Assembly (NCBI GenBank): GCA_002423545.1 | Contig: DIWP01000046.1 | Location: 32,437 to 96,436, forward strand | From: Thermoleophilia bacterium UBA6103 | Lineage (GTDB): Bacteria > Actinomycetota > Thermoleophilia > UBA2241 | Length of the DNA stretch: 64,000 nucleotides | Direction of reading: 5' to 3' | In this document: piece by piece, positions 2,541 to 58,658 of the stretch | Numbering within the stretch: the stretch's first letter is position 1 | Layout of the letters: each line of letters starts with the position of its first letter | Made by a program: the position numbers and the translations under genes | The notes under the pieces: generated by a model | Databases searched by the model: none | What the model saw: the letters and a program-made list of their open reading frames with translations, nothing else | What the model was told of the DNA's origin: nothing

Positions 2541-3299
2541 CTACGCGTCGTCCGAGGAGCGGTCCAGTGCCTCCGCGAGGACCTCGCCGACCATCAGTCG
2601 CGTGCCGGCCAGGTGGCTGCGCATCGCCTCTTCCGCCCGCTCCGGCTCGCGATCCCGCACCGCCTCGTAGATCTGCGTGTGCGCGTCGCGCAACTCCTCC
2701 GCGCGATGCGTGCGCAGGAGCAGGCCTACCGGCAGGAACAGCTCGCGACGCACAGCCAGCATCGCGTCTGCGAGATGCCGGCTGTGCGCTGCGGCCGCCA
2801 GAGCGTCGTGGAGCACGGCGTTCCAACGCAGGAACGCCGTGTGACTGTCCGTGGCCGCCGCCGTCCACGCCGATTCGATCTCCCGCAGCTCGCTCTCGCT
2901 GCGCCGCCGCGCCGCCAGGGACGCGATATTCGTCTCGACGATCTCGCGGTACTCCCAGAGGTCGTCCACCTCGTCACCTATGGCCCGCATCCAGTCCGTC
3001 CAGCGGCGGGTGAGAGTCTGGACGTCCTCTACCCGCGACCCACCGTGCGCTCCTCGGCTGGTGACGATGAAGCCGGCACTCTCCAGCGACTTGAGAGCGA
3101 CCCTGAGGGTGAGCACTGAGATGCCCAGATGGTCCGCCAGTTGTCGCAGCGGCGGCAGCCAGTCCCCGGGAGTGAGCTCTCCCGAGTAGATCATCCCGCG
3201 GATCAAGTCGGCGGTGATGTCGCTCGGGTTCACAGCGCTCACGGGTGCCTGAGGGACCGAAGAAGACGAGAAGGCAGAGGCGTCTCTCACCGGCTTCAC
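2541..3299 (-). CDS. GntR/FadR-family transcriptional regulator (FCD domain)
   Basis: HTH motif (LPPLRQLADHLGISVLTLRVALKSLESAGFIVTSRGAHGG) followed by an FCD-type C-terminal domain. Convergent with the upstream GntR gene. Confidence 0.8.
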   Translation of the reverse strand: MKPVRDASAFSSSSVPQAPVSAVNPSDITADLIRGMIYSGELTPGDWLPPLRQLADHLGISVLTLRVALKSLESAGFIVTSRGAHGGSRVEDVQTLTRRWTDWMRAIGDEVDDLWEYREIVETNIASLAARRRSESELREIESAWTAAATDSHTAFLRWNAVLHDALAAAAHSRHLADAMLAVRRELFLPVGLLLRTHRAEELRDAHTQIYEAVRDREPERAEEAMRSHLAGTRLMVGEVLAEALDRSSDDA

Positions 3300-3401
3300 A
3301 ACGCATCGCCCGCTTTCATTGCGGAAGTCCTTGACGCAAATGAATCATACAGTTACTCTCTGACACAATAAGACCCTGCACCACCGATCGGAGGGGCCAC
3401 T

Positions 3402-4340
3402 GTGGCAGTATCGGCGTTCCGGGATGGCGAGTACGTGCCGCTGAACGAGGTCACGGTCAGCGTCCAGAGCCACGCCTTCCAGTACGGCACCAGCGTGTTC
3501 GAGGGTATCCGCGGGTACTGGGACACCGCAGCATCGGACCTCCTTCTCTTCCGCCCCGACCGGCACTACGCACGACTGCATCGCTCTGCCCGATTCTACG
3601 GCATGACCCTGCCGTACTCCGTCGACGACCTGTGCGACATCACCGCCGAGCTGCTCGTGCGGGACGGCGTTCGCGAGGACGCCTATGTGCGGCCGGTCCT
3701 CTTCAAGGACACGAATGCCATCGGGGTCTGGCGCCCCGACCTGACGGACAGCTTCGTCGTCTTCCACGTTCCCATGGGCAAGTACCTGGCCGATGAGGCG
3801 ATCCGATGCTGCGTCAGTACATGGCGGCGGCCGGAGGGCAACGCGGCCCCCGTCCGGGCCAAGGTCGGCGGCCTGTACGCGGCCATGGCCCTGGCACGCT
3901 ACGAGGCGATGCTGCAGGGCTTCGACGAGGCGATCACACTGACGGCGACGGGGCACGTGGCGGAAGGGACCGGCGAGAACGTCTTCCTCGTCCAGGACGG
4001 CCGGCTGGTGACCCCGGCCGCCGGAGAGGACCTGCTCGCCGGCATCACCCGCGAGTGCGTCATCGAGCTGGCGGAGGCAGAGCTCGGCCTCGAGGTGGTC
4101 GAGCGCTCGGTAAACCGCAGCGAGCTGTACGTGTCGGACGAGATCTTCCTGGTCGGTACGGCGGCCGAGGTCACGCCCGTGGCGGAGGTCGACCGCCGTC
4201 TCGTCGGCGACGGACAGACCGGACCGATCACGGCCGACCTGAAGGACCTCTTTTCGCGCGTGGTCCGTGGCAGGGTCGCGAAGTATGGGCACTGGTGCTT
4301 TCCGGTCCGCACCCAGGTTCCGCAGGCGGTCCGGCCGTGA
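3402..4340 (+). CDS. ilvE: Branched-chain amino acid aminotransferase (class IV PLP aminotransferase)
   Basis: Class IV aminotransferase motifs (FQYGTSVFEGIRGYW, ENVFLVQDGRLVTPA, LAGITRECVIELA). GTG start. Confidence 0.8.
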   Translation: MAVSAFRDGEYVPLNEVTVSVQSHAFQYGTSVFEGIRGYWDTAASDLLLFRPDRHYARLHRSARFYGMTLPYSVDDLCDITAELLVRDGVREDAYVRPVLFKDTNAIGVWRPDLTDSFVVFHVPMGKYLADEAIRCCVSTWRRPEGNAAPVRAKVGGLYAAMALARYEAMLQGFDEAITLTATGHVAEGTGENVFLVQDGRLVTPAAGEDLLAGITRECVIELAEAELGLEVVERSVNRSELYVSDEIFLVGTAAEVTPVAEVDRRLVGDGQTGPITADLKDLFSRVVRGRVAKYGHWCFPVRTQVPQAVRP

Positions 4341-6571
4341 TCGAAATAGTGGTCCACGGGCGCGGTGGGCGCGGGGGCGTCACGCTGGCGAAGCTGATCG
4401 CCGGCATGTACTTCCGGCGAGGAAGCTACGTGCAGGCGTTCGGCGTCTACGGCGCCGAGCGCTCCGGCGCGCCGGTCCAGGCGTACGTCCGGGTGGATAC
4501 GGAGGAGATCACCGCGCACCTGCCGATCACCGAGCCCGACCACATCGTCGTCATCGATCCGTCGCTCATCACGGCAGCTGTCGCGTCGGGCCTGAGGGCG
4601 GGCGGGTGGCTGGTGTTGAACTCACCGCTGGAGCCCGCCGCGTTCGCTCAAACGTTCCCAGGGTGCTGTGTTGCAACGCTCGACGCGAACGCGATCGCGT
4701 CGGCCAATGGACTCGGGAGCCCGGCCCTGCCCATCGTCAACACGACCATGCTCGGTGCGGCCGCCAGGTTGTTCGGCCTGCACGTGGCCGACGTCGAGGG
4801 TGCGCTCGACGATGTCGGCCTGAAGGGCGGCAACCCGGCCGCCGCGCGGGCGGCCTATGACTCCGTGCTGACGGCGGCGATGCCCGGTAAGGTCGTCCGC
4901 GTCGCGCCGCAGTTGCCGCCGCGGTCGCTCGGCTTCCTGGACGATGGCGTCGGTGGCCTTCCCACCATCCACACCGGGCAGTGGGCGTCGCGCCGCCCGC
5001 ACAGCCGCGAGCTCGCCGCGGTGTGCAGCGAGGCGTGTCCCGCCGGCAATGACGTACGCGGCTTCCTGCAGGCGGCGGCGCGGGGCGACTACGACGCCGC
5101 GCTGTCCCTGATCCTCGAGACATCGCCGTTCCCCGGTATCTGCGGTCGCGTCTGTCCGGCGCCCTGCATGGCCGGCTGCAACCGCGCCCAACTGGACGAA
5201 GCGGTGAACGTGCGCGAGGTGGAGCGCGCCGTTGCAGGGCGCGGCCGGCTACCGGAGCCCGGGAAGCCCCGGCGCGCCGAGCGTGTCGCGGTGGTCGGGT
5301 CTGGCCCGGCCGGCCTGAGCGCCGCCTATCACCTGGGGCGCTTGGGCTACGGCGTCACGGTGTTCGAGGCCGACCCCGAGAGCGGTGGGCTGCTGCGCCG
5401 CGGCATACCGGCGTACCGCCTGCCGCGCGACATACTAGATCGCGAAGTGGATTTCGTGCTGCGGCACGGCGTCGACATCGAAACGGGTCACCCCGTCGAC
5501 CGCGCGGAGCTGGCGCGACTGCGCAGGCGATACGCCGCCGTGTTCGTGGCGACCGGTTTGCAGGGCACGCCGTCGCTCGAGCTCGGCGGCGCCTGCAACG
5601 GCGCGGTGCTCCAGGGGCTCGACTTCCTCGAGAGGGCCTGTCGAGGCGAGGCCTCGGTCGCCGGCGACAGCCTGGTCGTGGTGGGCGGTGGCAACACGGC
5701 GATGGATGCCGCGCGGACGGCGCTCCGTCTGGGCGCCCGGGACGTGCGCGTCGTCTACCGGCGCACCCGTGACGAGATGCCGGCGATCGCCGAGGAGGTC
5801 GACGAAGCTCTCGAAGAGGGGGTCGAGCTCCGCGAGCTGGAAGCGCCTGTGCGGATCTGCGAGGCAGCGACGGGCCCGACGCTCGTCTGCCGACGCATGC
5901 GGCTGGGCAAACCGGACGGATCCGGCCGGCGTCGCCCCGTGCCCGTGGAAGGCGACGAGGCTCTCGTCGAACTGCCGTGCGACCGTCTGCTGCTCGCCCT
6001 GGGCCAATCGCCGGATGTCTCCGTGCTGCCGAAAGGCGCGGAGATCAGGGGGTGCCGGATCGCCGGCGAAAAAGAGGACGCGCCGCTCTTCGTCGGTGGC
6101 GACCTGGCGACGGGAGAGGGGACGGTGGCGGCGGCCGTGGGCAGCGGCCGGCTGGCCGCCGCACGCATCCATGCCCTGCTCGACGGCAGCGAGACGGAAG
6201 AACCGCAACCGCACGAGCTCGCCGGCCCCGACGTCATCGCGCTCGACCGGTTCCCGAAAACGGCCCAGCACAAGAGCGCCATGCTGGCCGTGGACGAGCG
6301 ACGGCGTACTTTCCTGGAGGTCCGCCGCGGCTTCGTCGACGAGGAGGGCGAGGACGCGACCGCCGCCGAGGCGGCGCGCTGCCTCAGCTGCGGCGCCTGC
6401 AACGAGTGCGAGACCTGTGTCGCCTACTGTCCCGAGGGGGTCGTCTGCCCCGCCGGCGGCCACCGGTACCTCTTCGACTACGAGTACTGCAAGGGCTGCG
6501 GGCTCTGCGCGGCACAGTGCCCGCGCGGCGTGATCGTCATGGAGGACTGCGCGGAGGAGGTCTGCACGTGA
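4337..6571 (+). CDS. 2-oxoacid:ferredoxin oxidoreductase gamma subunit fused to a GltD-like NAD(P)H/FAD/[4Fe-4S] oxidoreductase domain and a C-terminal delta (2x[4Fe-4S] ferredoxin) subunit
   Basis: GTG at 4337 (GTGA overlap with the ilvE stop) is in frame with track ORF 3806..6571. Residues upstream of it are an alternative-frame artefact over ilvE. N-terminus is KOR gamma (VIEIVVHGRGGRGGVTLAKLIAGMYFRRGSYVQAFGVYGAERSGAP). The middle has GltD-type Cys clusters (CSEACPAGNDV, CGRVCPAPCMAGCN) plus FAD/NAD Rossmann folds (VAVVGSGPAGLSAAYHL, VVVGGGNTAMDAART). The C-terminus has CLSCGACNECETCVAYCP and CKGCGLCAAQCP. Confidence 0.75.
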   Translation: MIEIVVHGRGGRGGVTLAKLIAGMYFRRGSYVQAFGVYGAERSGAPVQAYVRVDTEEITAHLPITEPDHIVVIDPSLITAAVASGLRAGGWLVLNSPLEPAAFAQTFPGCCVATLDANAIASANGLGSPALPIVNTTMLGAAARLFGLHVADVEGALDDVGLKGGNPAAARAAYDSVLTAAMPGKVVRVAPQLPPRSLGFLDDGVGGLPTIHTGQWASRRPHSRELAAVCSEACPAGNDVRGFLQAAARGDYDAALSLILETSPFPGICGRVCPAPCMAGCNRAQLDEAVNVREVERAVAGRGRLPEPGKPRRAERVAVVGSGPAGLSAAYHLGRLGYGVTVFEADPESGGLLRRGIPAYRLPRDILDREVDFVLRHGVDIETGHPVDRAELARLRRRYAAVFVATGLQGTPSLELGGACNGAVLQGLDFLERACRGEASVAGDSLVVVGGGNTAMDAARTALRLGARDVRVVYRRTRDEMPAIAEEVDEALEEGVELRELEAPVRICEAATGPTLVCRRMRLGKPDGSGRRRPVPVEGDEALVELPCDRLLLALGQSPDVSVLPKGAEIRGCRIAGEKEDAPLFVGGDLATGEGTVAAAVGSGRLAAARIHALLDGSETEEPQPHELAGPDVIALDRFPKTAQHKSAMLAVDERRRTFLEVRRGFVDEEGEDATAAEAARCLSCGACNECETCVAYCPEGVVCPAGGHRYLFDYEYCKGCGLCAAQCPRGVIVMEDCAEEVCT

Positions 6572-7743
6572 GCCGCGCATACGTGACCGGGAATCACGCC
6601 GCCGGCCACGCGCTGGCTGCCGCCGGTGAGGCCAACCGCCGTGCGCGCGGCTGCTGCGGCGGCGCGTACCCCATCACGCCGCAGACCGAGATCATCGAGT
6701 ATCTCATGGCGCATGCCTTCGCCAGAGGGAGCGTGGTGCCGGTCGAGTCCGAGCACAGCGCGATGGGGGTGTGCATCGGCGCCGCGCTCGCCGGCGCCCG
6801 CGCCTTCACCGCCAGTTCGGCCAACGGCCTCCTCTACATGATGGAGAACGTGTTCGCCGCGGGCTACTACCGCCTGCCGGTGGTGATGGTCGTGTCGAAC
6901 CGGACGCTTGGACCGCCCTGGAACATCTGGGCGGACCAGGGCGACAGCCTCGCACTGCGCGACGCCCCTTGGCTGCAGTTCTACTGCGACTCGCACCAGG
7001 ATCTGGTCGATACGATCCTGGTAGCGTTCCGGATCGCCGAGGACCTACGGGTCCTCCTGCCGGCGATCGTCGCCCAGGACGGCTTCCTTCTCTCGCACAC
7101 GCAGATGGTGGTCGATCTTCCCGAGCAGGAACTGGTCGACGGCTATCTGCCGCCGCTCGACCTGCCGCATCATCTGGACTTCGGGCGCCCGCGGATGTAC
7201 GGCGGAATGACGTGGCCGCGCGACACGCAGCGGCAGCGCGCGGACATCCAGGCCGCCATGGACCGGGTGCCCGAGGTGCTCGACGAGGCGCTCGACGACT
7301 TCGAGCGGTCGTTCGGCCGCCGGCCGGTCTCGGCCTTCTCCGCGGAGCAGACCGGCGACGCCGACATCGTCGTGGTCGCCTGCAACACGCTCGCGGAGAC
7401 GGCCAGAGAGGTCGTCCGGGCCCGCCGGGCCGCGGGTGAGCGTGTGGGGCTGGTCCGGGTGAAGCTCTTCCGGCCGTTCCTCAGGCAAGCGCTCGTCGAC
7501 GCGGTGGGCCCGGCCAGTCGGGTCGCGGTCCTCGACCGCAACCACTCGCCGGGCTCGGGTGGCATCTTCTGGAACGAGATCGCGACAAGCCTGCGATCCC
7601 GTCCGGACGTGGTGCTGCAGGACTACATCGTCGGGCTCGGCGGCAGCGACGTGGCGCCGGCCGTCATCGACGGCATCATCCGGGACGTCGGCACCCGCGA
7701 CACCGCCGCCGATCCGATCTTCATCACGGAGGCGGTCGCATGA
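6568..7743 (+). CDS. 2-oxoacid:ferredoxin oxidoreductase alpha subunit
   Basis: GTG start with GTGA overlap, in frame with ORF 5977..7743. PorA/VorA-like sequence (GNHAAGHALAAAGEANRRARGCCGGAYPITPQTEIIEY…SEHSAMGVCIGAALAGARAFTASSANGL). Confidence 0.85.
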   Translation: MSRAYVTGNHAAGHALAAAGEANRRARGCCGGAYPITPQTEIIEYLMAHAFARGSVVPVESEHSAMGVCIGAALAGARAFTASSANGLLYMMENVFAAGYYRLPVVMVVSNRTLGPPWNIWADQGDSLALRDAPWLQFYCDSHQDLVDTILVAFRIAEDLRVLLPAIVAQDGFLLSHTQMVVDLPEQELVDGYLPPLDLPHHLDFGRPRMYGGMTWPRDTQRQRADIQAAMDRVPEVLDEALDDFERSFGRRPVSAFSAEQTGDADIVVVACNTLAETAREVVRARRAAGERVGLVRVKLFRPFLRQALVDAVGPASRVAVLDRNHSPGSGGIFWNEIATSLRSRPDVVLQDYIVGLGGSDVAPAVIDGIIRDVGTRDTAADPIFITEAVA

Positions 7744-8723
7744 ACGTGACCGGTGTTGAGGAGGAGGTCCACAGCCACACCGAGCACGCGCTGTGGCGTG
7801 CCGGCAACGGCGCCTGCGCCGGGTGTGGCATGTCACTCGGCCTGCAGTGGGTGGACCAGGCGCTCGACGGCGAGAAGCCGACCATGGTGGTGCCCGCCTG
7901 TTGCGCGGTCGTCACGCCGGGTTCCTACCCGACGACCGCCTTCGGCGTGCCGGCCGTGGCCACCACGTTCGCGAGTTCTCCGTCGGTGGCCACGGGTGTC
8001 AGCCGGGTGCGTCAGATGAACGGCGAGGACATCCCGACGATCTGTTGGGCCGGAGACGGCGGCACCTACGACATCGGCCTGGCCACGATCTCGGGGGCGG
8101 CCGAGCGCAACGAGGACATCATCTACATCTGCTACGACAACGAGATCTACGGCAACACCGGCGGGCAGCGCAGCAGCGCGACCTTGCCGGGTGCGAGGAC
8201 CAGCACCACGCCCGCCGGCAAGCACGAGCCCAAGAAGGACATCATGGCGGTGCTTGTCGCGCACCGCATCCCCTATGCGGCCACCCTCTCGCTGGCGCAC
8301 CGCGACGACTTCCTGCGCAAGATCCGGGTGGCCCGCCGACTGCGGGGGTTTCGCTTCATGGTGATGCTGTCGCCGTGCCCGGCAGGCTGGAAGTCGGACC
8401 CGGCCGAGGGCATCGACCTGGTGCGGGCGGCTGTGGGATGCGGCCTGTTCCCGCTCTACGAGGTCTTCGACGGCCGCCGCTACCGCATCAACGCCCGTCC
8501 GGACGGCACCGCTCTGGAGGACTACCTGTCGCGGCAGGGCCGCTTCAGGACGCCCTCCTTCGATCACGCCGCCACGCGCGCCGCCATCGCCGAGCAGTGG
8601 GCCTACCTGGATGCCATGGAGGCGGCCTTCCCGGCCGGGCCCCGTGAGGGGTCGGACGTCCCGGCCGCTCCGCCACCCCCTCCCATAGCCCCGGAGGCGA
8701 ACGGACCGGTGACGGGGCCGTGA
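7740..8723 (+). CDS. 2-oxoacid:ferredoxin oxidoreductase beta subunit (TPP-binding)
   Basis: ATGA overlap with the alpha subunit. TPP and Fe-S motifs (CAGCGMSLGL, GDGGTYDIGLATISGAAERNEDIIYICYDNEIYGNTGGQ). Confidence 0.85.
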   Translation: MNVTGVEEEVHSHTEHALWRAGNGACAGCGMSLGLQWVDQALDGEKPTMVVPACCAVVTPGSYPTTAFGVPAVATTFASSPSVATGVSRVRQMNGEDIPTICWAGDGGTYDIGLATISGAAERNEDIIYICYDNEIYGNTGGQRSSATLPGARTSTTPAGKHEPKKDIMAVLVAHRIPYAATLSLAHRDDFLRKIRVARRLRGFRFMVMLSPCPAGWKSDPAEGIDLVRAAVGCGLFPLYEVFDGRRYRINARPDGTALEDYLSRQGRFRTPSFDHAATRAAIAEQWAYLDAMEAAFPAGPREGSDVPAAPPPPPIAPEANGPVTGP

Positions 8724-9040
8724 AGCACACCCTCCGCATCATCGTGCTGGACCGGCCATCCGTCCTGGCCCGCGTGGCCGGACAGGTAGGGCGCCGCAGC
8801 GTCAACATCGATCACTTCACGGCGCGCAACATCGCCGACGGCAAGACGGTGATCACCATCGGCATCGACACCGACGAACACCTGGCCGAACGGCTCGCGA
8901 AGGGGATCGCCCGGCTCATCGACGTCCTCGATGTGGACTGGAAGCCCGACGTATCGCGTCCGGACGGGCCGGTGGCCATAGCCGAAGATCGACGGACGGA
9001 GCGCTCCGTAGAGGAGGACAGATGCCCGCGAACAAGATGA
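8720..9040 (+). CDS. Stand-alone ACT-domain protein (AHAS small-subunit-like regulatory fold)
   Basis: GTG with GTGA overlap to the KOR beta stop. HTLRIIVLDRPSVLARVAGQVGRRSVNIDHFTARNIADGKTVITIGIDTD is typical of IlvH-type ACT domains. The 3' end overlaps the next gene by 19 nt. Confidence 0.6.
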   Translation: MKHTLRIIVLDRPSVLARVAGQVGRRSVNIDHFTARNIADGKTVITIGIDTDEHLAERLAKGIARLIDVLDVDWKPDVSRPDGPVAIAEDRRTERSVEEDRCPRTR

Positions 9041-9705
9041 TCCCGCTCGATGAGGCGGTGGCGCGTGTCGAGTCCGGCATGACGCTCGCGATGGGCGGGT
9101 TCCTGGGTCAGGGCTCTCCGCTCACGTTGATCCGGTCCTTGCGCGACGGAGACGTCGAGGACCTGACGATCTACGCCAACGATGCCGGCTTCGGCGACGC
9201 CGGTATCGTCGAGCTCATCCGGGCAGGCAAGGTCAGGACGCTCTACTGCTGCCATGCCGGCTACACGCCGGCGGTGAACGAGGCGGTCGAGCGGGGACTG
9301 GTCGAGCTTGTGTGGACACCACAGGGCAACCTCATCGAGATGCTGCGCTGTGGCGGCGCCGGCCTCGGGGGGTTCCTCACGCCGACCGGTGTGGGCACCT
9401 CAGTCGCGGAGGGCAAGGAGCACGTCACGGTCGACGGCAAGGTCTACTTCTGGGAGCGCGCCGTGCGGGTCGACGTGGCACTCGTGCAGGCGCATGCCGG
9501 TGACACCCTGGGCAACCTTTGTCACCGCGGGACCGCCCGCAACTACAACCCGATCGTCGCGAGCTGCGCCGACTACGTGATCGCCGAGGTCGAGCACGTG
9601 TGCTGCCCGGGCGAGCTCGACCCGGAGAAGATCCAGACGTGCGGCGTCTTCGTGGACGCGGTGGTCCGTACGACCGGCGACAACGCGTCGCGGCACGCGG
9701 CGTAG
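9022..9705 (+). CDS. 3-oxoacid CoA-transferase subunit A (AtoD/ScoA family)
   Basis: Family I CoA-transferase alpha-subunit motifs (GMTLAMGGFLGQGSP, GNLIEMLRCGGAGLGGFLTPTGVGT). Confidence 0.85.
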   Translation: MPANKMIPLDEAVARVESGMTLAMGGFLGQGSPLTLIRSLRDGDVEDLTIYANDAGFGDAGIVELIRAGKVRTLYCCHAGYTPAVNEAVERGLVELVWTPQGNLIEMLRCGGAGLGGFLTPTGVGTSVAEGKEHVTVDGKVYFWERAVRVDVALVQAHAGDTLGNLCHRGTARNYNPIVASCADYVIAEVEHVCCPGELDPEKIQTCGVFVDAVVRTTGDNASRHAA

Positions 9706-9717
9706 GAGGAGGGTGCG

Positions 9718-10401
9718 ATGTCGGCCGGCTCGACCCGGGACACCAGGTGCACGATCGCCGCGCGGGCGGCTCGTGAGCTCAAGGACGGCGACGTCGTCAA
9801 CCTCGGCGCCGGCATCCCGATGCTGGTCGCCAACTACGTGCCGGACGGACGCGATGTCGTGATCCAGGCGGAGAACGGCATCGTGCGCTGTGGGCCGGTG
9901 TCGGCACCCGGCACGGAGGAGCCGGACCGGCGCAACGCCGGCAATCTGCCGGTCGAGCTTCTTCCGGGCGGCTGCTACGTCGACAGCGCCACCTCCTTCG
10001 GGATGATTCGCGGAGGGCACATCGACGCCACCATGATCGGCACGCTGCAGGTGGACGGCGACGGCGACATCGCCAACTGGCAGATGCCGGGGCGCAAGAT
10101 CGGCATGGGCGGCGCCATGGATCTGGTCGCCGGAGCCCGGCGCGTCTACGTGCTCACCGAACACTGCGCCAAAGACGGATCGCCGAAGCTCGTGGAGCGT
10201 TGCACCCTGCCGCTGACGGGTGCCGGCGAGTGCGATGTGCTCATCACGGAGCGCGCGCTGTTCCGCCGTTCACCCGAGCGGGGCTTTGTGCTGGAGGAGG
10301 TCGCGCGAGGCTATGCTCTCGACGACATCCGGAGCGCCACCGGCATGCGTTATGAGGTCGCCGAGGATGTGAGGCTGGAGGCCTACGGTCCGGCGAAGTG
10401 A
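9718..10401 (+). CDS. 3-oxoacid CoA-transferase subunit B (AtoA/ScoB family)
   Basis: Beta-subunit motifs (VNLGAGIPMLVANYVP, ENGIVRCGP, GGAMDLVAGARRVYVLTEH). Confidence 0.85.
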   Translation: MSAGSTRDTRCTIAARAARELKDGDVVNLGAGIPMLVANYVPDGRDVVIQAENGIVRCGPVSAPGTEEPDRRNAGNLPVELLPGGCYVDSATSFGMIRGGHIDATMIGTLQVDGDGDIANWQMPGRKIGMGGAMDLVAGARRVYVLTEHCAKDGSPKLVERCTLPLTGAGECDVLITERALFRRSPERGFVLEEVARGYALDDIRSATGMRYEVAEDVRLEAYGPAK

Positions 10402-10414
10402 CCCGTCTCCCCGT

Positions 10415-10426
10415 CCGCAGCTGCGG
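10415..10426 (+). terminator. 12-nt perfect palindrome CCGCAGCTGCGG 14 nt after the operon stop; possible terminator-like hairpin
   Basis: Seen directly after the ctfB stop (10399-10401). There is no U-tract, which is common in high-GC genomes. Confidence 0.2.
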
Positions 10427-10619
10427 GCAACCATCCCGGACCGCCCAGATGAATGCGGCATGTCCGACTGTCCCGCTCCCTGCCGGCCGCGCCGCCTGCC
10501 CGAGGCGGAAGCATCCACGCTCACCTCGATCCGGACCCGATGAGCGAGTTGCGGTGGCCGCGGGGTCTGCCGCTGTTGCGACGCGCGTTCGTCTCAGGAA
10601 GACTCGAAGAGACCTGCTG

Positions 10620-11090
10620 AAGGCCGGCGGCCGTCGTGGGCTGCGGAGTCCAGGCGCGGACCAGCCTCATGGCTCTCGTCGAGGAGATGCCATCGCTGGC
10701 GGAGGTGCGGTGCTACGACTTGTATCCGGAGGCGGCGCGCAGATTCGTAGCCGACATGGGAGCGACGTTCCCCGCACTGCGCTTCATCGTCTGCATGTCT
10801 GCCGCAGAGGCTGCGCGTCCGGCGGACGTGGTGGTCACCGCCGTCCCGATCGTCGTGGACCCCGCACCGACTCTGGATGGCGGGCAGCTCAAGGAAGGCG
10901 CTCTTGCATACCTGCGGTCATCACGGGCGATCTCGGCGAGCTGGCCGCCGGTCTGGCAGCCGGGCGCGAGAGCGACGCCGAGCGCATCTTCTGCATGAAC
11001 ATGGGCATCGCCGTCGACGATCTGGTGACGGCACGGATCCTCCACCAGCGCGCGTGCCAGCGAGGCGTCGGGGTCCGTCTGCCACTCTGA
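10620..11090 (+). pseudogene. Ornithine cyclodeaminase / mu-crystallin family gene remnant (5'-truncated, frameshifted, with an internal deletion)
   Basis: Frame 1 (10636..10998) encodes the Rossmann part (GCGVQARTSLMALVEEMPSLAEVRCYDLYPEAARRFVADM…AEAARPADVVVTAVP) but is preceded by an in-frame TGA at about 10617. The OCD C-terminus (ITGDLGELAAGLAAGRESDAERIFCMNMGIAVDDLVTARIL) is in a different frame (ORF 10398..11090). About 40 aa expected between the two parts are missing. Confidence 0.55.
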
Positions 11091-11232: not shown

Positions 11233-12213
11233 TCACAGTCCCTTGTGCTTCGCAGAGTCGTCGCAGTGCGCCGCGGGGCCGGCGCCGTTGCGGCGGATCA
11301 GCTTGCGCATCACGGCATGTCCCACGAGGCCGGCCATGGCCGGGTTCTCGCGCATGCGTCGCTGGGAGTAGGCGGCCGCGTCGCTGCCGTAGGGCACGTA
11401 GATGCGCACTCTGTGCTCGCGTGCCAGTGTCCTTGCCAGGTCGCCTCTGACGCCGAGCAGCATCTGGAACTCGTAGGCATCGGGGGAGAGGCCGAGCTCC
11501 GAGACGGCTCGCAGCGCCTCCACGATCAGGTACTCGTCGTGCGTCGCGATGCCCACGTAGGAGCCTCGGCTGAGCAGGCGTCTGAGCATCTCGCAGAAGC
11601 TGGCGCGTATGGCGTCGTAGTCCTGCAGGCCCACGTCGGGCTTCTCGAGATAGATGCCCTTGCAGAGCCTGACGTTGGGCGTCAGGTCGGCGAGGGCCTG
11701 TACGTCCCCCAGGCTGCGCCAGAGCCTCGACTGAAGGACGACGCCGGTGCCGGTCAAGCCCGTGCTCCGCAGACGACGGTACAGAGCCAGCGTGGCGTCG
11801 GTGGTGGTGGCGTCTTCCATGTCGATGCGGACGAAGACCCCGAGCTCCGCTGCGTGCGTCAGCATCGCTGTGATGGCGGCCTCAGAGGCGTCCCAGTTCG
11901 TCGTACTGCCGAAGGCGCTCGGCTTGAGGCTGACGTTGGCATCGAGACGATCAGCCGTGATCGCCTCGAGCAGAGCCTTGTAGTCTGAGACGGTCATGTC
12001 GTTGCGCGACTCGTCCTCGACGCTCTCGCCGAGGATGTCGACCGTTGCGCACAGGCCGGCGCGGTTGAGGCCCTTCACGGTGCGCACTGCATCTTCGAGC
12101 CTGCTGCCGGCGATATACGGACTGGCAAGAGCCTTCACCACCGGTCCGGGGACGAGCGGAGCGGCCACCGAGACCATGCGGCCGAAAGCACCACCAGAGG
12201 CCGATCGCGTCAT
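11233..12213 (-). CDS. Proline dehydrogenase (monofunctional PutA-like)
   Basis: ProDH TIM-barrel motifs (VDILGESV, VSLKPSAFG, VRIDMEDA, RLCKGIY, GIATHDE, YEFQMLLGVR, RIYVPYG). Confidence 0.85.
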   Translation of the reverse strand: MTRSASGGAFGRMVSVAAPLVPGPVVKALASPYIAGSRLEDAVRTVKGLNRAGLCATVDILGESVEDESRNDMTVSDYKALLEAITADRLDANVSLKPSAFGSTTNWDASEAAITAMLTHAAELGVFVRIDMEDATTTDATLALYRRLRSTGLTGTGVVLQSRLWRSLGDVQALADLTPNVRLCKGIYLEKPDVGLQDYDAIRASFCEMLRRLLSRGSYVGIATHDEYLIVEALRAVSELGLSPDAYEFQMLLGVRGDLARTLAREHRVRIYVPYGSDAAAYSQRRMRENPAMAGLVGHAVMRKLIRRNGAGPAAHCDDSAKHKGL

Positions 12214-12601: not shown

Positions 12602-13786
12602 ATGGACCTCTTCGAGTGGCACGGCAAGCGTCTGTTCGCGGCGGCCGGCATCCCGGTGCCGCGTGGCAGCGTGGCGCGCACCGTCGACGAGGCGTGTGCA
12701 GCGGCGGCGACGCTGGGGTTCCCGGTCGTCGTCAAGGCGCAGGTACTCACCGGCGGTCGCGGCAAGGCCGGCGGCGTGCGCACCGCCGGCAGCACCGGCG
12801 AGCTCGCCGCGGTCGCCCGGCACATCCTCGATCTGACCATCCGCGGCTTCGCGGTAGACGCGCTGCTCATCGAGGCGGCGCTGGCCATCCGTCACGAGCT
12901 CTACCTGGCTGTGACCCTCGACAGGCGCCGGCGCCGGCCGCTGCTGCTCATCTCGGCCGAGGGCGGCATGGACATCGAGCAGGTCGCGCGCGAGCATCCG
13001 GGCTCGCTGTTCAAGGCGCCGCTCGATCCGCTTCTGGAGCCGTCGCAGGCGGTGCACGATGGTGCGTGGGAGGCTCTCTCCGGAGCTGCCGCCGCGGCGC
13101 GGCTCGACGGCCGCCTGCGCGACGATCTGGTGGACCTTGCGACGGCCGTCTACCGCCTCTACCGCGACCACGACGCGACGCTCATCGAGCTGAATCCTCT
13201 GGCGGTAGTCGAAGGCGACGGCGACGGCGACGGCCACGGCGTTCGTCTCATGGCGCTCGACGCCAAGGTGACCGTCGACGACAACGCTCTGTTCCGGCAG
13301 CCGGACCTGGCGGCCTGGCGCACCGGCGAGGACGAGCGCGAGCGGCGGGCACGTGAGGCCGGCGTCACCTACGTGACGCTCGACGGCGACGTGGGCGTCA
13401 TCGGCAACGGCGCCGGCCTCGTCATGAGTACCCTCGACCTGATCGCCGCGGCCGGCGGTCGGGCGGCCAATTTCTGCGACATCGGCGGCGGCGCGCGGGC
13501 CGATCAGATCGCCGCCGCCCTGCAGATAGTCACCGCCGACGAGCGCGTGCGCGGCCTGCTGGTCAACGTGTTCGGCGGCATCACCCGCGGCGACGAGGTC
13601 GCGCGCGGTCTGCTCGCGGGTCTTCGGCAGCTCTCCGATCGGTCGCTGCCGATGGTCGTCCGTCTCGATGGCAACAACGCGGCCGCCGGGCGCGCGCTGC
13701 TGGCGGCCGAGCGCCCCGGTCTGGCTGTCATGGAGACCCCGTGGGACGCCGTGCAGCGGGTCGTCTCCCTGGTGGCGGAGGGCTGA
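12602..13786 (+). CDS. sucC: Succinyl-CoA synthetase (or related NDP-forming acyl-CoA ligase) beta subunit
   Basis: [20 protein letters not shown]…[21 protein letters not shown]…[15 protein letters not shown]…CDIGGGA. Contains an unusual [10 protein letters not shown] low-complexity insertion. Confidence 0.8.
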
Positions 13787-13787
13787 C

Positions 13788-14738
13788 GTGGCGATCCTGG
13801 TCGACGAAGGCAGCCGCGTCCTGGTGCAGGGCATCACCGGGCGGGAGGGCACGTTCCATACGGAGCGCATGCTGGCCGCCGACACCCGCATCGTGGCCGG
13901 CGTTACGCCGGGCAAGGGTGGCAGCACGGTGCACGAGGTGCCGGTTTTTGGGACCGTCCAGGAGGCGGTGGCCGCGACCGGCGCCGATGTCGCCGTCGCC
14001 TTTGTTCCGGCTCGCTTCGCCAAGGCGGCCGCCCTGGAGTCGGCCGACGCCGGCATACGGCTCGCGGTGCTCATCACCGAAGGCATCCCGGTGCGCGACA
14101 TGGTCGAGCTGACCGCCGAGCTGGAGGGCTTCGGCCTCGACGAGATCCAGCGCCGGGCGCTGGGCCGACGCGACCCCGACGCAGCGGATGAGCCGGTCGC
14201 GTCACGCGGCGGCATGACGCTCGTGGGTCCCAACTGCCCGGGAGTGGTCTCGCCGGGCGCCTGCAACGTCGGCATCATGGCCGCCGACATCTTCCTGCCC
14301 GGTGGCGTCGGCGTGGTTTCGCGCAGCGGCACGTTGACCTACGAGATCGTTGGTGGCCTCACGCGGCTCGGTATCGGCCAGTCGACCTGCGTCGGCATGG
14401 GCGGCGACCCGGTCCACGGCGTGGGCTTCCTGGAATGCCTCGAGTTGTTCGAAGCCGACCCGCAGACCGAGGCGGTGGTGCTGGTCGGCGAGATCGGCGG
14501 CGACGACGAGGAGCGCGCCGCTGCGTACGCTGCCGAGCACCTCACGAAGCCGGTGGTCGCCTACCTCGCCGGCTTCACCGCGCCGCCCGGCAAGCGCATG
14601 GGGCATGCGGGGGCCATCGTCTCCGGCGCCGGCGGCACGGCGGCCGCCAAGGCCGAGGCGCTCGAGGCGGCCGGCATCCCGGTGGCGCGGCGTCCCGATG
14701 AGGTACCGGGTCTGGTGGCCGCGGCACTCGGCCGCTGA
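13788..14738 (+). CDS. sucD: Succinyl-CoA synthetase alpha subunit
   Basis: GTG at 13788, in frame with ORF 13668..14738, 1 nt after the sucC stop. Motifs: [53 protein letters not shown]. There is a roughly 25-30 aa insertion ([31 protein letters not shown]) before the GPNCPG loop. Confidence 0.85.
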
Positions 14739-14879
14739 CCGTAGCGCGTCCGGGAGCCCCCGAAGGGTCTGCGACCCGCGGGCACGCATCGACCGCTTCA
14801 CGGCGGGCCCCGGGGTCCTCGATGGCTCTGCAGCCCGAGGCCACCCACCGACCGCCTCGCGCTCGCAGGACCGAGGCGC

Positions 14880-15554
14880 GTGCTTGTGCTAGCCTTCATG
14901 CTTCGAGCAGCGTCCATCCAGGACGTGCGGGATCGGGGGACAGATGATCGAGCGCGGCGACCGATGAGCAGTCGCACAGGGGGCCAGGCGGCGAAGCGGC
15001 GTACCGCCGGACGTGGCTCTGCGGCGCGGGCGTCGTCGCCGAAGGCACCGGTGAAGATCACCGGCACGCTCTCCAACCTGCTCCTGATCGGACTCGGCCT
15101 GCACGGTGTCGGGATCGTCGGGACCTGTCTCGCCATCGGCATCGCCCTGCGTTCGGCCGGCGACAAGCTGCCGGTGGGTGAGAAGATCTCGTTCCCGCTG
15201 CTGCTTCTCATCGTGGTGCTCGGCACCTACATCTGCTTCGCAAGCGTGCACGGGGCGGCGCTCTACCTGATCCGCCGTGGCGGGAACGAGCAGGGACTCA
15301 CCATGATGGCGTTCGGCGGCGGGGTGCTCGCCATCGCCACGATAGCGGGCGGCTTCTACGCTTTCGGCGAGCGGTTCTTCATGCTCGGTGCGGCGGCGGC
15401 GTATGCGGTGCCCTATTCGCTGGCGCCGCTGATCGTGGGGCTGCCGACCACCGCCGCTGCCGCCGTGCTGGCGTTCCGCCAGAGACGCGGCGGCTCGGGC
15501 AGCCGCTCGGGCAGCCGGTCGCAGCGCGCCCAGCAGCCGCGCCTGCTGCGCTGA
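14880..15554 (+). CDS. Hypothetical membrane protein (about 4 predicted TM helices); start uncertain, possibly Met at 14964
   Basis: Hydrophobic segments (LLLIGLGLHGVGIVGTCLAIGIAL, FPLLLLIVVLGTYICFASV, GGVLAIATIAGGFYAF, AAAAYAVPYSLAPLIVGL). No family recognised. Confidence 0.4.
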   Translation: MLVLAFMLRAASIQDVRDRGTDDRARRPMSSRTGGQAAKRRTAGRGSAARASSPKAPVKITGTLSNLLLIGLGLHGVGIVGTCLAIGIALRSAGDKLPVGEKISFPLLLLIVVLGTYICFASVHGAALYLIRRGGNEQGLTMMAFGGGVLAIATIAGGFYAFGERFFMLGAAAAYAVPYSLAPLIVGLPTTAAAAVLAFRQRRGGSGSRSGSRSQRAQQPRLLR

Positions 15555-15783
15555 AGGCCGGCCCTTGCGCCGACCGGCCGACCTGCGCTGATTGGCCAAT
15601 CGCCCCCGCCGCGTCTGCCGGTGTGGTGCATCGCCCGCCCTTTCGTCCTCGAGCGAGCGTGTGCTAGCGTTCAAAGGCTTCAGGGTAGGAGCCGCGAAGC
15701 GCCACAGCACCGGCAAGCTTGCATGCGGACGGCCGTGGCCGCCGCTCCGCGGACTATCGGCGTCGAACAGGGAGGAGACCCCC

Positions 15784-17673
15784 ATGCCCCAGCCAGAGCA
15801 CCAGCCCACCGTCGAGGAGCTCAAGGCCAAGGCCTACCAGCCCATGGAAGACGCCACGGTCCTGCATCCGTTCTACAAGGGCAAGATCGAGACCACGCTC
15901 AAGTGCTGCGTGCGCGACTTCCAGGACTTCGGCATCTGGTACACGCCCGGCGTCTCGGCTCCCTGTCTGGAGATCAAGGACGACCCCGAGAAGATCTACG
16001 AGCACACCAACAAGTGGAACACGGTGGCGGTCATCAGCGACGGCACCCGCGTTCTCGGCATGGGAGACATCGGCCCCAAGGCCGGCATGCCGGTCATGGA
16101 GGGCAAGAGCCTGCTCTACAAGTACCTGGGCGGCGTCGACGGCTTTCCGCTGATGGTGGACACGAAGGATCCCGACCGCTTCATCGAGTTCGTCAAGCTC
16201 GTCCAGCCGGGCCTCGGCGGCGTCAACCTGGAAGACATCGCCCAGCCCAAGTGCTTCCGCATCCTCGACACGCTGCGCGAGGAGTGCGAGATCCCGGTCT
16301 GGCACGACGACCAGCAGGGCACCGCCTGCGTCACCTTGGCCGGCCTCATCAACGCTCTCAAGGTCACCGGCAAGAAGATCGACGAGATCAGGATCGCCTT
16401 CATCGGCTCGGGGGCGGCCAACGTGGCCATCAGCCGCCTCATCTTCCACTACGGCGCCCGCCCCGAGCTGGCCCGCGTCTGCGACTCCAAGGGCATCCTG
16501 CACAAGGGCCGCAGCGACATCGAGGCCGTCAAGGACGAGTGGGTCGACAAGTGGAAGTACTGCCAGATCACCAATGAGGAGCAGCGGACCGGCAGCATCG
16601 CCGAAGCCCTGGCCGGCGCCGACGTCTGCATCGCCCTCTCCAAGCAGGGTCCGGACACCATCGTGCCGGAGTGGATCAAGGGCATGAGCCCCGACCCGAT
16701 CGTCTTCCTGTGTTCCAACCCGATTCCCGAGATGTGGCCCTGGGATGCGCTGGAGGCGGGCGCCGCGGTGGTCGCCACCGGCCGCTCCGACTTCCCCAAC
16801 CAGGTCAACAACAGCCTCGGGTTCCCCGGCATCTTCCGCGGCACCCTCGATGTGCGCGCCAAGACGATCACCGACGAGATGTGCATCGCCGCCGCCGAGG
16901 AACTCGCCAGGCTGGCCGAGGAACAGGGCCTGCGGCCCGACTACATCATGCCGACCATGGACGACTGGGAGGTCTTCCCGCGCGAGGCCGCCGCGGTGGC
17001 CATGAAGGCGGTCGAGCAGGGCGTGGCGCTGCGCACCGACATCACCTACGAGCAGGAGAAGGCCGAGGCCACAGAGATCATCGCCCGGGCCCGCGGCCTG
17101 GTGCAGGACGCCGAGGCGCTCGGCTACATCAAGATGCCGAAGGGCAGCAAGCCGCCGGCGCCGACGAAGCAGGCTGTGCGGGCGGTCGGGCGCGGCGTGG
17201 CGGCCGATGCCCGGGCCAAGGGCACCGCCGCCGCCGACGAGGCGCGCGAACGCGGCAAGCAGCTGCTGGCCGACGCGCGCGAGCAGGCCAAGCGGATCGT
17301 CGCCGAGGCCCGCTCGGAGGCCCGCCGTGCCGGCGGCGACGCACGCACCCAGGCGCGGGCCGACGCCCGGCAGGTCGTCGCCGACGCCAGGCACGAGGCC
17401 ACGGAGATCGTCGACGAAGCGGTCCACCACGCCAGCGAGACCATGGACGAGGCTCACGTGAAGGCGCGCGAGCTGGTGCAGGAGGCGGTGGCCGAGGCCA
17501 GGCGGATCACCCAGGAGGCGCAGAAGACGCTCGGCAAGTCGGCCGAGGCGGCCGCCGAGAAGGGCAAGCAGGTCGCCAAGGAGGCCAAGGCCGCCGCCAA
17601 GGAGGCCGCCAAGCAGGCGAAGAAGGCGCGCGCCAAGGCCAAGGACAAGAAGAAGGGCAAGAAGGGCAAGTAA
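15784..17673 (+). CDS. NAD(P)-dependent malic enzyme with about 190-aa C-terminal Ala/Glu/Lys/Arg-rich extension
   Basis: ATG at 15784 is preceded by GGAGGAG. Malic-enzyme motifs (VLHPFYKGKIETTLKC, GIWYTPGVSAPC, VISDGTRVLGMGDIGPKAGMPVMEGKSLLYK, FIGSGAANVAI). From about nt 17170 there is a low-complexity helical tail ending in KKARAKAKDKKKGKKGK. Confidence 0.85.
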   Translation: MPQPEHQPTVEELKAKAYQPMEDATVLHPFYKGKIETTLKCCVRDFQDFGIWYTPGVSAPCLEIKDDPEKIYEHTNKWNTVAVISDGTRVLGMGDIGPKAGMPVMEGKSLLYKYLGGVDGFPLMVDTKDPDRFIEFVKLVQPGLGGVNLEDIAQPKCFRILDTLREECEIPVWHDDQQGTACVTLAGLINALKVTGKKIDEIRIAFIGSGAANVAISRLIFHYGARPELARVCDSKGILHKGRSDIEAVKDEWVDKWKYCQITNEEQRTGSIAEALAGADVCIALSKQGPDTIVPEWIKGMSPDPIVFLCSNPIPEMWPWDALEAGAAVVATGRSDFPNQVNNSLGFPGIFRGTLDVRAKTITDEMCIAAAEELARLAEEQGLRPDYIMPTMDDWEVFPREAAAVAMKAVEQGVALRTDITYEQEKAEATEIIARARGLVQDAEALGYIKMPKGSKPPAPTKQAVRAVGRGVAADARAKGTAAADEARERGKQLLADAREQAKRIVAEARSEARRAGGDARTQARADARQVVADARHEATEIVDEAVHHASETMDEAHVKARELVQEAVAEARRITQEAQKTLGKSAEAAAEKGKQVAKEAKAAAKEAAKQAKKARAKAKDKKKGKKGK

Positions 17674-17739
17674 GGCCCGCGCGCCACCCCGTACGACCAG
17701 ATGGCCGACGCCGACCGTCGGCCGCAGGAGGTGATCGCG

Positions 17740-18591: not shown

Positions 18592-18611
18592 AGCGACGCG
18601 GGAGGAGTGAG

Positions 18612-19166: not shown

Positions 19167-19203
19167 GACGGCGGCTGAAGAAGCACGGTCGAGGTGCGTG
19201 GCG

Positions 19204-20178: not shown

Positions 20179-20287
20179 GCCGACCGTTGCGGCGGGCAGG
20201 TGAGATGAGCCGACGGCTCCGGCCGGCAGAGTGGAAGATGAGCCGGCCGTCTTGGCGGGTGCGGGCGGACGACCGTACGGCCACTGA

Positions 20288-21073: not shown

Positions 21074-21363
21074 CGGCGGCCGGTGCGCATTGTCGATCGA
21101 CCGCGATCGATCGACAGGTCGGGAGATCGGCCGGCATCGAGCGGCCGGGATCGAGCGGCCAAGGCCGCGCACCCTGTCGTCGACGCCGGCCGCCCGCGCA
21201 ACGTCACCCTGCCACAGATGGCATCGTCTCCCTTGCTCGCAGATCGTCGACCTTGGCCGGTCCGACGCGAGCGAGTATCTTCGAGTGGTCATGTAGCTGT
21301 TGCAGTCTGCAAGCAAAGTGCTAATCTGGGAGGTGTGTCGGAGTGACCGGGACTGGAGTGGCC

Positions 21364-53792: not shown

Positions 53793-58658
<4,866 letters not shown>

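Follow-up and report, generated by a model that had tools for sequence, protein, structure and literature searches.

In this study, we have analysed a 64,000-nucleotide stretch of DNA (hereafter the window) from Thermoleophilia bacterium UBA6103 (contig DIWP01000046.1, positions 32,437 to 96,436), and we propose that the genes at positions 3402 to 10401 form a regulated amino-acid catabolic operon centred on a ferredoxin-independent, NADP+-reducing member of the 2-oxoacid:ferredoxin oxidoreductase (OFOR) family with an ACT-domain regulatory subunit. We would give this reading a probability of roughly 0.55. NADP+ is the predicted acceptor because the gamma and delta subunits of the enzyme are joined in one chain through an inserted NfnB-like ferredoxin:NADP+ reductase module; this chain, of 744 amino acids (aa), is the product of the second operon gene (4337 to 6571), which an earlier note on this DNA (the original prediction) had passed over.

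The operon consists of seven open reading frames (ORFs) in the same direction on the + strand, from a GTG at 3402 to a stop at 10401. Eight genes had originally been claimed; the six junctions listed with that claim imply seven, and all six are exactly as listed: GTGA at 4337 (ilvE/fusion), GTGA at 6568 (fusion/alpha), ATGA at 7740 (alpha/beta), GTGA at 8720 (beta/ACT), a 19-nucleotide (nt) overlap at 9022 to 9040 (ACT/CoA-transferase A) and a 12-nt gap at 9706 to 9717 (CoA-transferase A/B). A further GTGA at 10398, at the end of ctfB, opens no functional gene. The JGI gene calls on the identical source contig (TOLCLC_10006851, 140 kb) give the same boundaries for all seven genes, and the N termini of the operon proteins match the start points of their homologues. 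With a GC content of about 70% in the window, four-base overlaps, which are frequent in high-GC operons, are unremarkable by themselves; what takes the operon beyond chance is that the order GntR (- strand), IlvE, fusion, alpha, beta, ACT recurs in about seven lineages, with 58 to 74% identity in the fusion protein, and that the promoter region is conserved as well. An Rfam scan detected no RNA elements within the operon or close to it. Its features are as follows.

3402 to 4340, + strand: class IV aminotransferase of the IlvE type (Aminotran_4)
4337 to 6571, + strand: 744-aa fusion of OFOR gamma, an NfnB/GltD-like module and OFOR delta (Pfam and PDB matches)
4337 to 4861, + strand: gamma (PorC-like) domain of the fusion, aa 1 to 175 (TIGR02175 PorC_KorC, 131.7 bits against a cut-off of 81.1)
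5000 to 6190, + strand: NfnB/GltD-like module of the fusion, aa 222 to 618 (alignments to 4ylf_B, 5jca_L, 9bov_A and 8oh5_C)
6287 to 6394, + strand: permuted segment RRxFxEV...EAxRCLSC of the fusion, aa 651 to 686 (HMMER secondary alignments)
6395 to 6544, + strand: delta (PorD-like) domain of the fusion, aa 687 to 736 (TIGR02179, PorD_Arch, 9bt4_G)
6568 to 7743, + strand: OFOR alpha, with domains I and II and YPITP (POR_N, 198 bits; PFOR_II, 80 bits)
7740 to 8723, + strand: OFOR beta, with the thiamine pyrophosphate (TPP) site and the proximal [4Fe-4S] cluster (TPP_enzyme_C)
8720 to 9040, + strand: 106-aa ACT protein of the acetohydroxyacid synthase (AHAS) small-subunit type (ACT_AHAS_ss, 35.8 bits against a cut-off of 27)
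9022 to 9705, + strand: class I CoA-transferase A (CoA_trans; TIGR02429, 209 bits against a cut-off of 128.5)
9718 to 10401, + strand: class I CoA-transferase B (TIGR02428, 255.9 bits against a cut-off of 243.55)

Single-chain pyruvate:ferredoxin oxidoreductases (PFORs) have the domain order I, II (alpha), III (gamma), IV, V (delta), VI (beta), and the flavoprotein of the fusion is inserted at the junction of III and V (III-IV-V in the single-chain enzymes), adjoining the distal delta cluster. Pfam places POR at residues 10 to 174 of the fusion, Fer4_20 at 228 to 300, Pyr_redox_2 at 316 to 603 and Fer4 at 687 to 733, and the matching PDB chains are NfnB 4ylf_B from Thermotoga (1e-70), PorC 9bt4_E and PorD 9bt4_G. 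The gamma domain, which scores above its model cut-off, thus lies in one polypeptide with two delta cluster motifs, C688xxC691xxC694xxxC698P and C718xxC721xxC724xxxC728P; the PorD models all fall below their cut-offs, with TIGR02179 PorD_KorD at 51 bits on the isolated C-terminal segment against 60.05. Between them, the NfnB-like module contains two [4Fe-4S] sites, an FAD site (GSGPAG) and an NADP(H) site (GGGNTAMDAAR...YRRTR), and its matches to related modules in 9bov_A, 9n5u_A and 8oh5_C reach 1e-84 to 1e-91.

The roles of individual residues (cluster ligands, Arg201 and the NADP(H)-contacting Arg325) were taken from Pyrococcus NfnI-B (PMC12221290). All seven cysteines and the glutamate of the NfnB ligand set are present in the fusion together with Fer4_20, Pyr_redox_2 and the FAD and NADP(H) contacts: C230, C234, C273, C277, C281 and E296 lie in the module and C682 and C685 in the relocated segment, and Arg201 and Arg325 correspond to R361 and R476, the latter within YRRTR. 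In an alignment of 13 homologues with 55 to 89% identity, the cluster ligands, R361, R476, the FAD and NADP(H) motifs and both CxxCxxCxxxCP motifs are invariant. The relocated segment aligns to residues 13 to 43 of 4ylf_B and 15 to 45 of 5jca_L; it is N-terminal in NfnB, and in the fusion it follows the flavin domain and runs directly into the first delta-type cluster motif. By these alignments it is a circular permutation, common to 9bov_A and 8oh5_C.

Bifurcating NfnB proteins and monofunctional ferredoxin:NADP+ reductases of the CA_C0764 type are separated by three marks of the former, namely an nfnA gene upstream, a conserved Arg333 and a long N terminus (PMC12221290). In the fusion, the Arg333 position of PfNfnI-B is occupied by Ile484 (EMPAI), which is nearly invariant in the 13-sequence alignment; the gene immediately upstream is ilvE, not nfnA, and no NfnA-type domains were found among the window ORFs scanned or the called genes of the source contig. 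Because Arg333 is replaced and no nfnA-like gene was found, the fusion resembles the monofunctional reductases, and the published marks of bifurcating NfnB seem to be missing from it; it differs from the CA_C0764 type in that its N-terminal segment has been moved rather than lost and in that it is embedded in an OFOR subunit. CA_C0764-type enzymes have been shown experimentally to pass electrons on from ferredoxin to NADP+, with an NADH activity at least 10-fold lower (PMC12221290). By analogy, the inserted module most likely moves electrons to NADP+, with the tethered delta domain standing in for ferredoxin.

The full fusion architecture is found in at least 120 protein clusters (90% identity) of 728 to 799 aa. 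Scans of genomes and metagenomes gave full-length copies in Phycisphaerae, other Planctomycetota, Thermoleophilia and other actinomycetotal metagenome-assembled genomes (MAGs), and one Melioribacter MAG, and alpha and beta directly follow the fusion in about 50 loci. Loci in genomes and metagenomes that hold related genes are given L numbers here, L001 being the source contig of the window. At least six loci carry the same parts unfused, as gamma, alpha, beta and a flavoprotein joined to delta, which speaks for a functional unit and against an annotation artefact. In these unfused loci (L114, L118, L120, L129, L134 and L162), the flavoprotein-delta protein is of the PRK12771 type and the alpha and beta motifs are classical and POR-like. 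In L099 and L163, a second OFOR gene set stands beside the fused one, in tandem in the former and divergently in the latter.

In Planctomycetota, the three-gene module stands alone, in unrelated neighbourhoods and without IlvE or ACT. The GntR, IlvE and ACT additions occur only in a clade at least 58% identical to the fusion of the window, comprising about seven lineages (L001, L166, L165, L002 to L004, L009, L085 and L167/L168): a divergent GntR/FCD gene is present in all seven, and IlvE and ACT in six of seven each. IlvE is linked in two gene orders, the second being the alpha-beta-IlvE-fusion order of L085. The last operon position varies among lineages; however, it is always taken by a short-chain acyl-CoA enzyme, which is a ScoAB-type CoA-transferase in L001, L009, L166 and L167, a PrpE/Acs-like AMP-forming ligase in L002, and a butyryl-CoA:acetate-CoA-transferase-like enzyme plus a PrpE/Acs-like ligase in L085. 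In L165, the operon leads directly to genes for electron transfer flavoprotein (ETF), IcmF, acyl-CoA dehydrogenase (ACAD) and a membrane Fe-S oxidoreductase; the same genes lie near the operon in L002, and in L165 those for ACAD, ETF and IcmF are on the same strand. Liv-type ABC transporter genes follow the operon in L167.

The SdhA protein encoded in the window is 97% identical to a protein on a contig inferred to be that of L002 (Ga0401392_0000302, 175,556 bp). Nevertheless, the OFOR operon of L002 is only 52 to 75% identical to that of the window and ends in an AMP ligase, not a CoA-transferase. This mismatch could reflect either an exchange of operons between close relatives or paralogous copies within each genome. 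Among named sequences, those nearest to SdhA, at only about 59% identity, come from Chloroflexota and Deltaproteobacteria, whereas the named relatives of the operon are actinomycetotal MAGs.

The ACT protein of the original prediction does have the ACT domain, and its PDB matches are AHAS regulatory subunits. It scores below the AHAS regulatory-subunit cut-off (TIGR00119, 41.7 bits against 56.9), and its neighbour is OFOR beta. Because ACT is fused to beta in relatives, the protein, which is translationally coupled to beta, is probably an OFOR subunit that binds beta: in L167/L168 and L009 no stop codon separates beta from the ACT domain, and a search with a beta-ACT protein found TPP_enzyme_C and ACT_AHAS_ss in a single chain in at least 20 distinct clusters at 58 to 94% identity. 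Judging from AHAS, which also depends on TPP, the protein probably places the oxidoreductase under the control of a small ligand, perhaps an amino acid. Our literature search found neither an ACT-OFOR pairing nor an ACT-regulated OFOR.

The original assignment of the aminotransferase to the branched-chain type was supported: IlvE exceeds both NCBI branched-chain aminotransferase equivalog cut-offs (NF005146, 341.5 bits against 279; TIGR01122, 306.5 against 245.55), and D-amino-acid transaminase models score far below theirs. We postulate that transcription proceeds from a conserved promoter beside the divergent GntR/FCD regulator and that IlvE converts branched-chain amino acids to 2-oxoacids, which the fusion, alpha and beta would together decarboxylate at TPP to give acyl-CoA. 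Two electrons would pass from TPP through the [4Fe-4S] cluster of beta, two delta clusters, two NfnB-type clusters and FAD to NADP+; the enzyme would be a PFOR, or a 2-oxoisovalerate:ferredoxin oxidoreductase (VOR), with its own ferredoxin:NADP+ reductase wired in, that is, a 2-oxoacid:NADP+ oxidoreductase. ACT would bind beta and let a small ligand, perhaps an amino acid, adjust the activity. The acyl-CoA would then be used by the CoA-transferase, with CoA passing to acetate or succinate, or by an ADP-forming acyl-CoA synthetase (ACD) encoded upstream, with formation of ATP. The oxidative direction is preferred because of the redox gap of about 180 mV, the catabolic neighbours and the GntR/FCD regulator. 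The acyl-CoA plus CO2/2-oxoacid couple lies at about -500 mV and NADP+ at -320 mV; since the 2-oxoacid couple is some 180 mV lower, oxidation is favoured.

The alpha and beta subunits belong to the clade of pyruvate (POR) and 2-oxoisovalerate enzymes. The nearest solved structure to alpha is Methanosarcina acetivorans PFOR (9bt4_B, 1e-66), and beta matches 9bt4_C at 1.6e-46, with the cysteines of CAGC, C54 and CPAGW aligned. Alpha has domains I and II and the motif YPITPQTEI, and beta has the four cysteines and the TPP motif GDGGTYDIG...YDNEIYGNT. They do not belong with the type specific for 2-oxoglutarate (KGOR/Oor): the best POR/VOR-type model scores 332.6 bits (E = 3e-99), whereas KorA/OorA-type models reach only 54.6 bits (E = 8.2e-15), and PDB KGOR chains match alpha and beta at only 1e-7 to 1e-10. 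Within the POR/VOR clade, alpha scores 288 bits on the VOR model PRK08366 (cut-off 646) and 333 on PorA_Arch (cut-off 550), and beta scores 301 on PRK11864 and 268 on PorB (cut-off 405 for both), so that the best-scoring models conflict, archaeal PorA for alpha and VorB for beta. An attempt to call VOR or POR from profile scores and motifs was dropped, as the scores lie below the cut-offs and the motifs do not discriminate; the JGI labels are equally ambiguous. It is the context that suggests a branched-chain substrate, namely the IlvE equivalog and, in relatives, the Liv, ACAD, ETF and IcmF genes, the last encoding isobutyryl-CoA mutase.

Several points weigh against our proposal. No POR or VOR equivalog model reaches its cut-off, and the two subunits point to different models. 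The motifs YPITPQTEI, NRTxGPPWNIWxDQGD and YDNEIYGNT do not differ between the IlvE-linked clade and the stand-alone planctomycetotal enzymes, whereas the unfused variants keep classical motifs; since these motifs are unchanged where IlvE and ACT are absent, the substrate range is perhaps a family trait and may be pyruvate or broad, not branched-chain-specific. The AlphaFold2 model of the fusion, built from the 13-sequence alignment, was too poor (mean pLDDT 65.7, with Fe-S regions below 50) and was kept out of fold searches and cluster geometry. Class I CoA-transferases typically act on 3-oxoacids. Finally, three features would also fit an operon running in reverse: the AMP-forming PrpE/Acs-like ligases of the L002 and L085 operons are acid-activating, CoA-transferases activate acids, and ACT domains of the AHAS type classically serve biosynthetic feedback.

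The shared motifs bear directly on one alternative, that the enzyme is a general pyruvate or broad 2-oxoacid:NADP+ oxidoreductase of central metabolism with which IlvE and the other genes are loosely associated. We regard this as unlikely, but it has substance: the module occurs with the same active-site motifs alone in housekeeping-like contexts in Planctomycetota, alpha prefers the archaeal PorA model and has a PFOR as its nearest structure, and genes for malic enzyme, fumarase, fumarate reductase and succinyl-CoA synthetase lie just downstream. However, the IlvE linkage is kept in two gene orders, relatives have IcmF and Liv genes, and beta scores best on the VOR beta model.

If the pathway instead ran in the anabolic direction, branched short-chain acids from an anaerobic community would be activated by the CoA-transferase, an AMP-forming ligase or ACD, reductively carboxylated by the oxidoreductase and transaminated by IlvE to valine, leucine or isoleucine, with ACT providing feedback inhibition as in AHAS. 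Anaerobes are known to carboxylate branched acids reductively, IlvE is reversible, every lineage ends the operon with an acid-activating enzyme, the AMP-forming ligase of L002 and L085 is essentially irreversible, and ACT belongs to the AHAS regulatory type. This reversal is nevertheless distinctly improbable, for NADPH is about 180 mV too positive for reductive carboxylation (approximately +35 kJ/mol under standard conditions), the bifurcation markers that could add driving force are missing, and the neighbours are catabolic (ACAD, ETF and IcmF in L165, Liv uptake, proline dehydrogenases and the GntR/FCD regulator).

The original prediction had compared the operon with the archaeal-type route of peptide fermentation, and its outline, from amino acid to 2-oxoacid to acyl-CoA to acid, stands; the ferredoxin-based character does not, given the inserted NADP+-type module, and with NADP+ as the acceptor the energetics would differ from those of such a fermentation. 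As in Thermococcales, the chemistry runs in the same order (transaminase; VOR, POR, KGOR or indolepyruvate:ferredoxin oxidoreductase; ACD) and the ACD is of the same type, but the operon of the window differs in its predicted NADP+ acceptor, its arrangement as a single regulated operon, its ACT subunit and its CoA-transferase. A classical ferredoxin-dependent VOR, passing reduced ferredoxin to a hydrogenase or other sinks while ACD makes ATP, could draw on the presence of alpha, beta, gamma and delta parts of POR/VOR type and on the adjacent ACD, whose linkage is conserved. We consider it very unlikely, because gamma and delta are bridged by a complete, conserved NADP(H)/FAD/[4Fe-4S]2 module retained across about 50 loci, the flavoprotein is fused to delta even in the unfused variants, and the ORF domain scan and JGI calls revealed no ferredoxin or hydrogenase gene in the operon. 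It is highly improbable that the NfnB-like module and some unlinked partner together carry out flavin-based electron bifurcation or confurcation: subunits of bifurcating complexes (8oh5_C, 4ylf_B and 5jca_L) are among its best PDB matches, but the Arg333 equivalent is Ile, no nfnA-like gene is nearby and the N-terminal segment is relocated.

The NADP+-reducing enzyme that we propose is reminiscent of several known systems. All four subunits of the POR/VOR enzymes exemplified by M. acetivorans PFOR (9bt4) are recognizable in the window; unlike in those enzymes, gamma and delta form one chain interrupted by the flavoprotein of about 500 aa, and an ACT subunit has been added. The active-site motifs also differ, NRTxGPPWNIWxDQGD standing where 9bt4_B has NRAVSAPINIWNDHQD, and YDNEIYGNT where 9bt4_C has DNEAYMNT. 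Like CA_C0764-type reductases and NfnB (PMC12221290; 4ylf_B, 5jca_L), the module combines Fer4_20 and Pyr_redox_2 with two [4Fe-4S] sites, FAD and NADP(H)-contact arginines, and like the monofunctional class it is without Arg333 or an nfnA partner; it is not, however, a free-standing protein acting on soluble ferredoxin but is set between gamma and delta with a segment permuted. Work on Fnor published in 2025 obtained the same net reaction by combining PFOR, ferredoxin and a separate Fnor.

Direct pyridine nucleotide reduction by an OFOR core with an extra FAD subunit was reportedly described by Hirsch et al. in 1998 for PadEFGHI of Azoarcus evansii. Compared with the enzyme of the window, this phenylglyoxylate:NAD+ oxidoreductase, for which PMC5109826 cites the 1998 paper, has five separate subunits and an aromatic substrate, and the window proteins score far below the Pad equivalog cut-offs (PadE, 90 bits against 300; PadG, 225 against 700; PadI, 150 against 700). 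The PadH (epsilon) model was not among the matches listed for the flavoprotein sub-regions, its presence in the profile library being unconfirmed. The pyruvate:NADP+ oxidoreductase of Euglena and Cryptosporidium is a single-chain PFOR with a C-terminal FMN/FAD module of the cytochrome-P450-reductase type that yields NADPH independently of ferredoxin, whereas the reductase in the window is an NfnB-type Fe-S flavoprotein between gamma and delta. The closest precedents are PFOR with Fnor in trans, phenylglyoxylate:NAD+ oxidoreductase and the eukaryotic pyruvate:NADP+ oxidoreductase. For the ACT protein, the parallel is with AHAS IlvN/IlvH, in which the same ACT subtype (ACT_AHAS_ss) stands beside a TPP-dependent catalytic partner; the protein of the window is without the IlvH-type C-terminal domain, and its partner is OFOR beta instead of the AHAS large subunit.

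Our literature search found no paper on an OFOR-NfnB/GltD fusion, and the 2025 Fnor paper does not mention one. We suggest, tentatively and with slightly less than even confidence, that fusion, alpha and beta represent a widespread enzyme class on which our search turned up no publication, namely a 2-oxoacid:NADP+ oxidoreductase that is self-contained, its TPP-to-NADP+ wire lying within one complex; that the clade of the window acquired an AHAS-type ACT, which would be the first reported small-molecule (probably amino-acid) allosteric control of any OFOR as far as we found; and that the enzyme could replace a branched-chain 2-oxoacid dehydrogenase complex. OFORs are usually viewed as ferredoxin-linked, reversible, low-potential enzymes, and annotation pipelines give proteins of the fusion family vague labels or those of ferredoxin enzymes. 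If NADP+-wired OFORs are as common as this suggests, genome-based reconstructions of redox balance would be altered, with consequences for how much NADPH and hydrogen many uncultured Planctomycetota and Actinomycetota are predicted to make and for how far their oxidation of 2-oxoacids is taken to be reversible. The enzyme would, moreover, offer metabolic engineering a compact, ferredoxin-free route from 2-oxoacid to acyl-CoA and NADPH, and its regulation by ACT would add a new case of allosteric control to the OFOR family.

The region upstream of the operon contains the following features.

1 to 1121, + strand: ACD alpha, its 5' end beyond the window edge (Pfam Succ_CoA_lig, TIGR02717)
1118 to 1801, + strand: ACD beta, ATP-grasp (NCBIfam NDP-forming acyl-CoA ligase matches, ATP-grasp_5)
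1837 to 2505, + strand: GntR/FCD regulator 1, in the same direction as ACD (Pfam GntR and FCD)
2541 to 3299, - strand: GntR/FCD regulator 2, divergent from ilvE (Pfam GntR and FCD)
3331 to 3369, + strand: promoter/operator-like region of predicted function (sequence and locus comparison)

The ACD type assigned originally to positions 1 to 1801 is confirmed by domains and motif, but the single gene proposed there is two ORFs joined by an ATGA overlap. Alpha, which is 457 aa on the source contig, where the complete gene has CoA_binding domains, carries the phosphohistidine motif SHTGSLAG, and beta is an ATP-grasp protein, as in NDP-forming acyl-CoA synthetases; the ACD equivalog cut-off is missed, partly because the window truncates alpha. 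The predicted tie of ACD to the operon also held, since ACD alpha and beta lie upstream of it in two related lineages (L003 and L166); the linkage is thus conserved.

Both GntR/FCD regulators, which had been said to flank the operon, lie upstream of it. Regulator 1 has a counterpart of 72% identity at the same place in L002/L003. The divergent gene is directly upstream of the operon in all loci of the clade, and regulator 2 is the probable local regulator. Between regulator 2 and ilvE, the promoter-like region comprises TTGACG (3331 to 3336), TACTCT (3354 to 3359) and CACAAT (3364 to 3369), with a palindrome, ATGAATCAT (3340 to 3348, containing TGAATCA), within the 17-nt spacer. This layout (TTGACN, a 17-nt spacer with TGAATCA, TACTCT, CACAAT) is common to L001, L002, L165 and L166, and a variant occurs in L167/L009. 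It was detected by comparing loci and not by consensus scans for promoters and terminators, which gave nothing useful in this 70% GC sequence.

CoA-transferase A and B both exceed their subfamily cut-offs, and B has the catalytic-glutamate motif AENG, with ENG at aa 52 to 54, as expected of class I (3-oxoacid/acetate) CoA-transferases. The enzyme could transfer CoA to acetate or succinate; alternatively, it could act on 3-oxoacids, as the family name implies. The AMP ligase in the operons of relatives is PrpE/Acs-like and not an acetoacetate-CoA ligase; the latter identity would have spoken for acetoacetate as a substrate of the CoA-transferase. A gene for a beta-keto-acid cleavage enzyme (BKACE) is found near the operon in L001 (1 to 5328, just upstream of the window) and in L166 (12268 to 13212), the two lineages with flanks that were seen together with a ScoAB-type CoA-transferase. 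The product of BKACE is acetoacetate, a classical substrate of this CoA-transferase family. The neighbours of BKACE in L001 are a proline racemase-like gene and genes for a class III aminotransferase, an MttB-family methyltransferase and an M20 peptidase.

Genes of C4-dicarboxylate metabolism lie in a series from 12602 to 26052, with succinyl-CoA synthetase beta and alpha (12602 to 14738), malic enzyme, a two-subunit Fe-S (class I) fumarase, and the flavoprotein, Fe-S and CCG-domain subunits of a succinate dehydrogenase/fumarate reductase; it could make or use succinyl-CoA for the CoA-transferase.

Downstream of ctfB, a decayed ornithine cyclodeaminase/mu-crystallin gene (10402 to 11090) has lost its N-terminal third and has a frameshift near 10996, between a piece at 10636 to 10998 (Pfam OCD_Mu_crystall, 1e-11) and a C-terminal piece ending at 11090; it could be either a true pseudogene or an assembly error. 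An arginase/agmatinase-family gene (20288 to 21073) is broken by two successive in-frame stops (TAA TAG, 20591 to 20596), and both of its halves match Pfam Arginase (profile positions 68 to 126 and 141 to 273). Two proline dehydrogenase paralogues (11233 to 12213, - strand; 19129 to 20178, + strand) are nearby, and the whole looks like the remnant of an arginine/ornithine/proline catabolic island.

No tRNA genes were found in the window. A Moco (molybdenum/tungsten cofactor) riboswitch at 46506 to 46628 (RF01055, 59.3 bits against a gathering score of 36) precedes a molybdate-type ABC transporter, with a binding protein at 46825 to 47745 and an ATPase with a TOBE domain at 48600 to 49703. An Rfam match to HIV-1_SD at 41427 to 41445, inside an aminotransferase gene, is almost certainly spurious (30.4 bits against a gathering score of 30, E = 0.021). 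Finally, positions 53793 to 58658 encode a 1621-aa hybrid sensor kinase (multiple PAS, HisKA, HATPase, receiver and Hpt domains), followed at 58733 to 60703 by an MnmC-like protein with Methyltransf_30 and DAO domains, genes that, to our knowledge, are not expected in a typical actinomycete.

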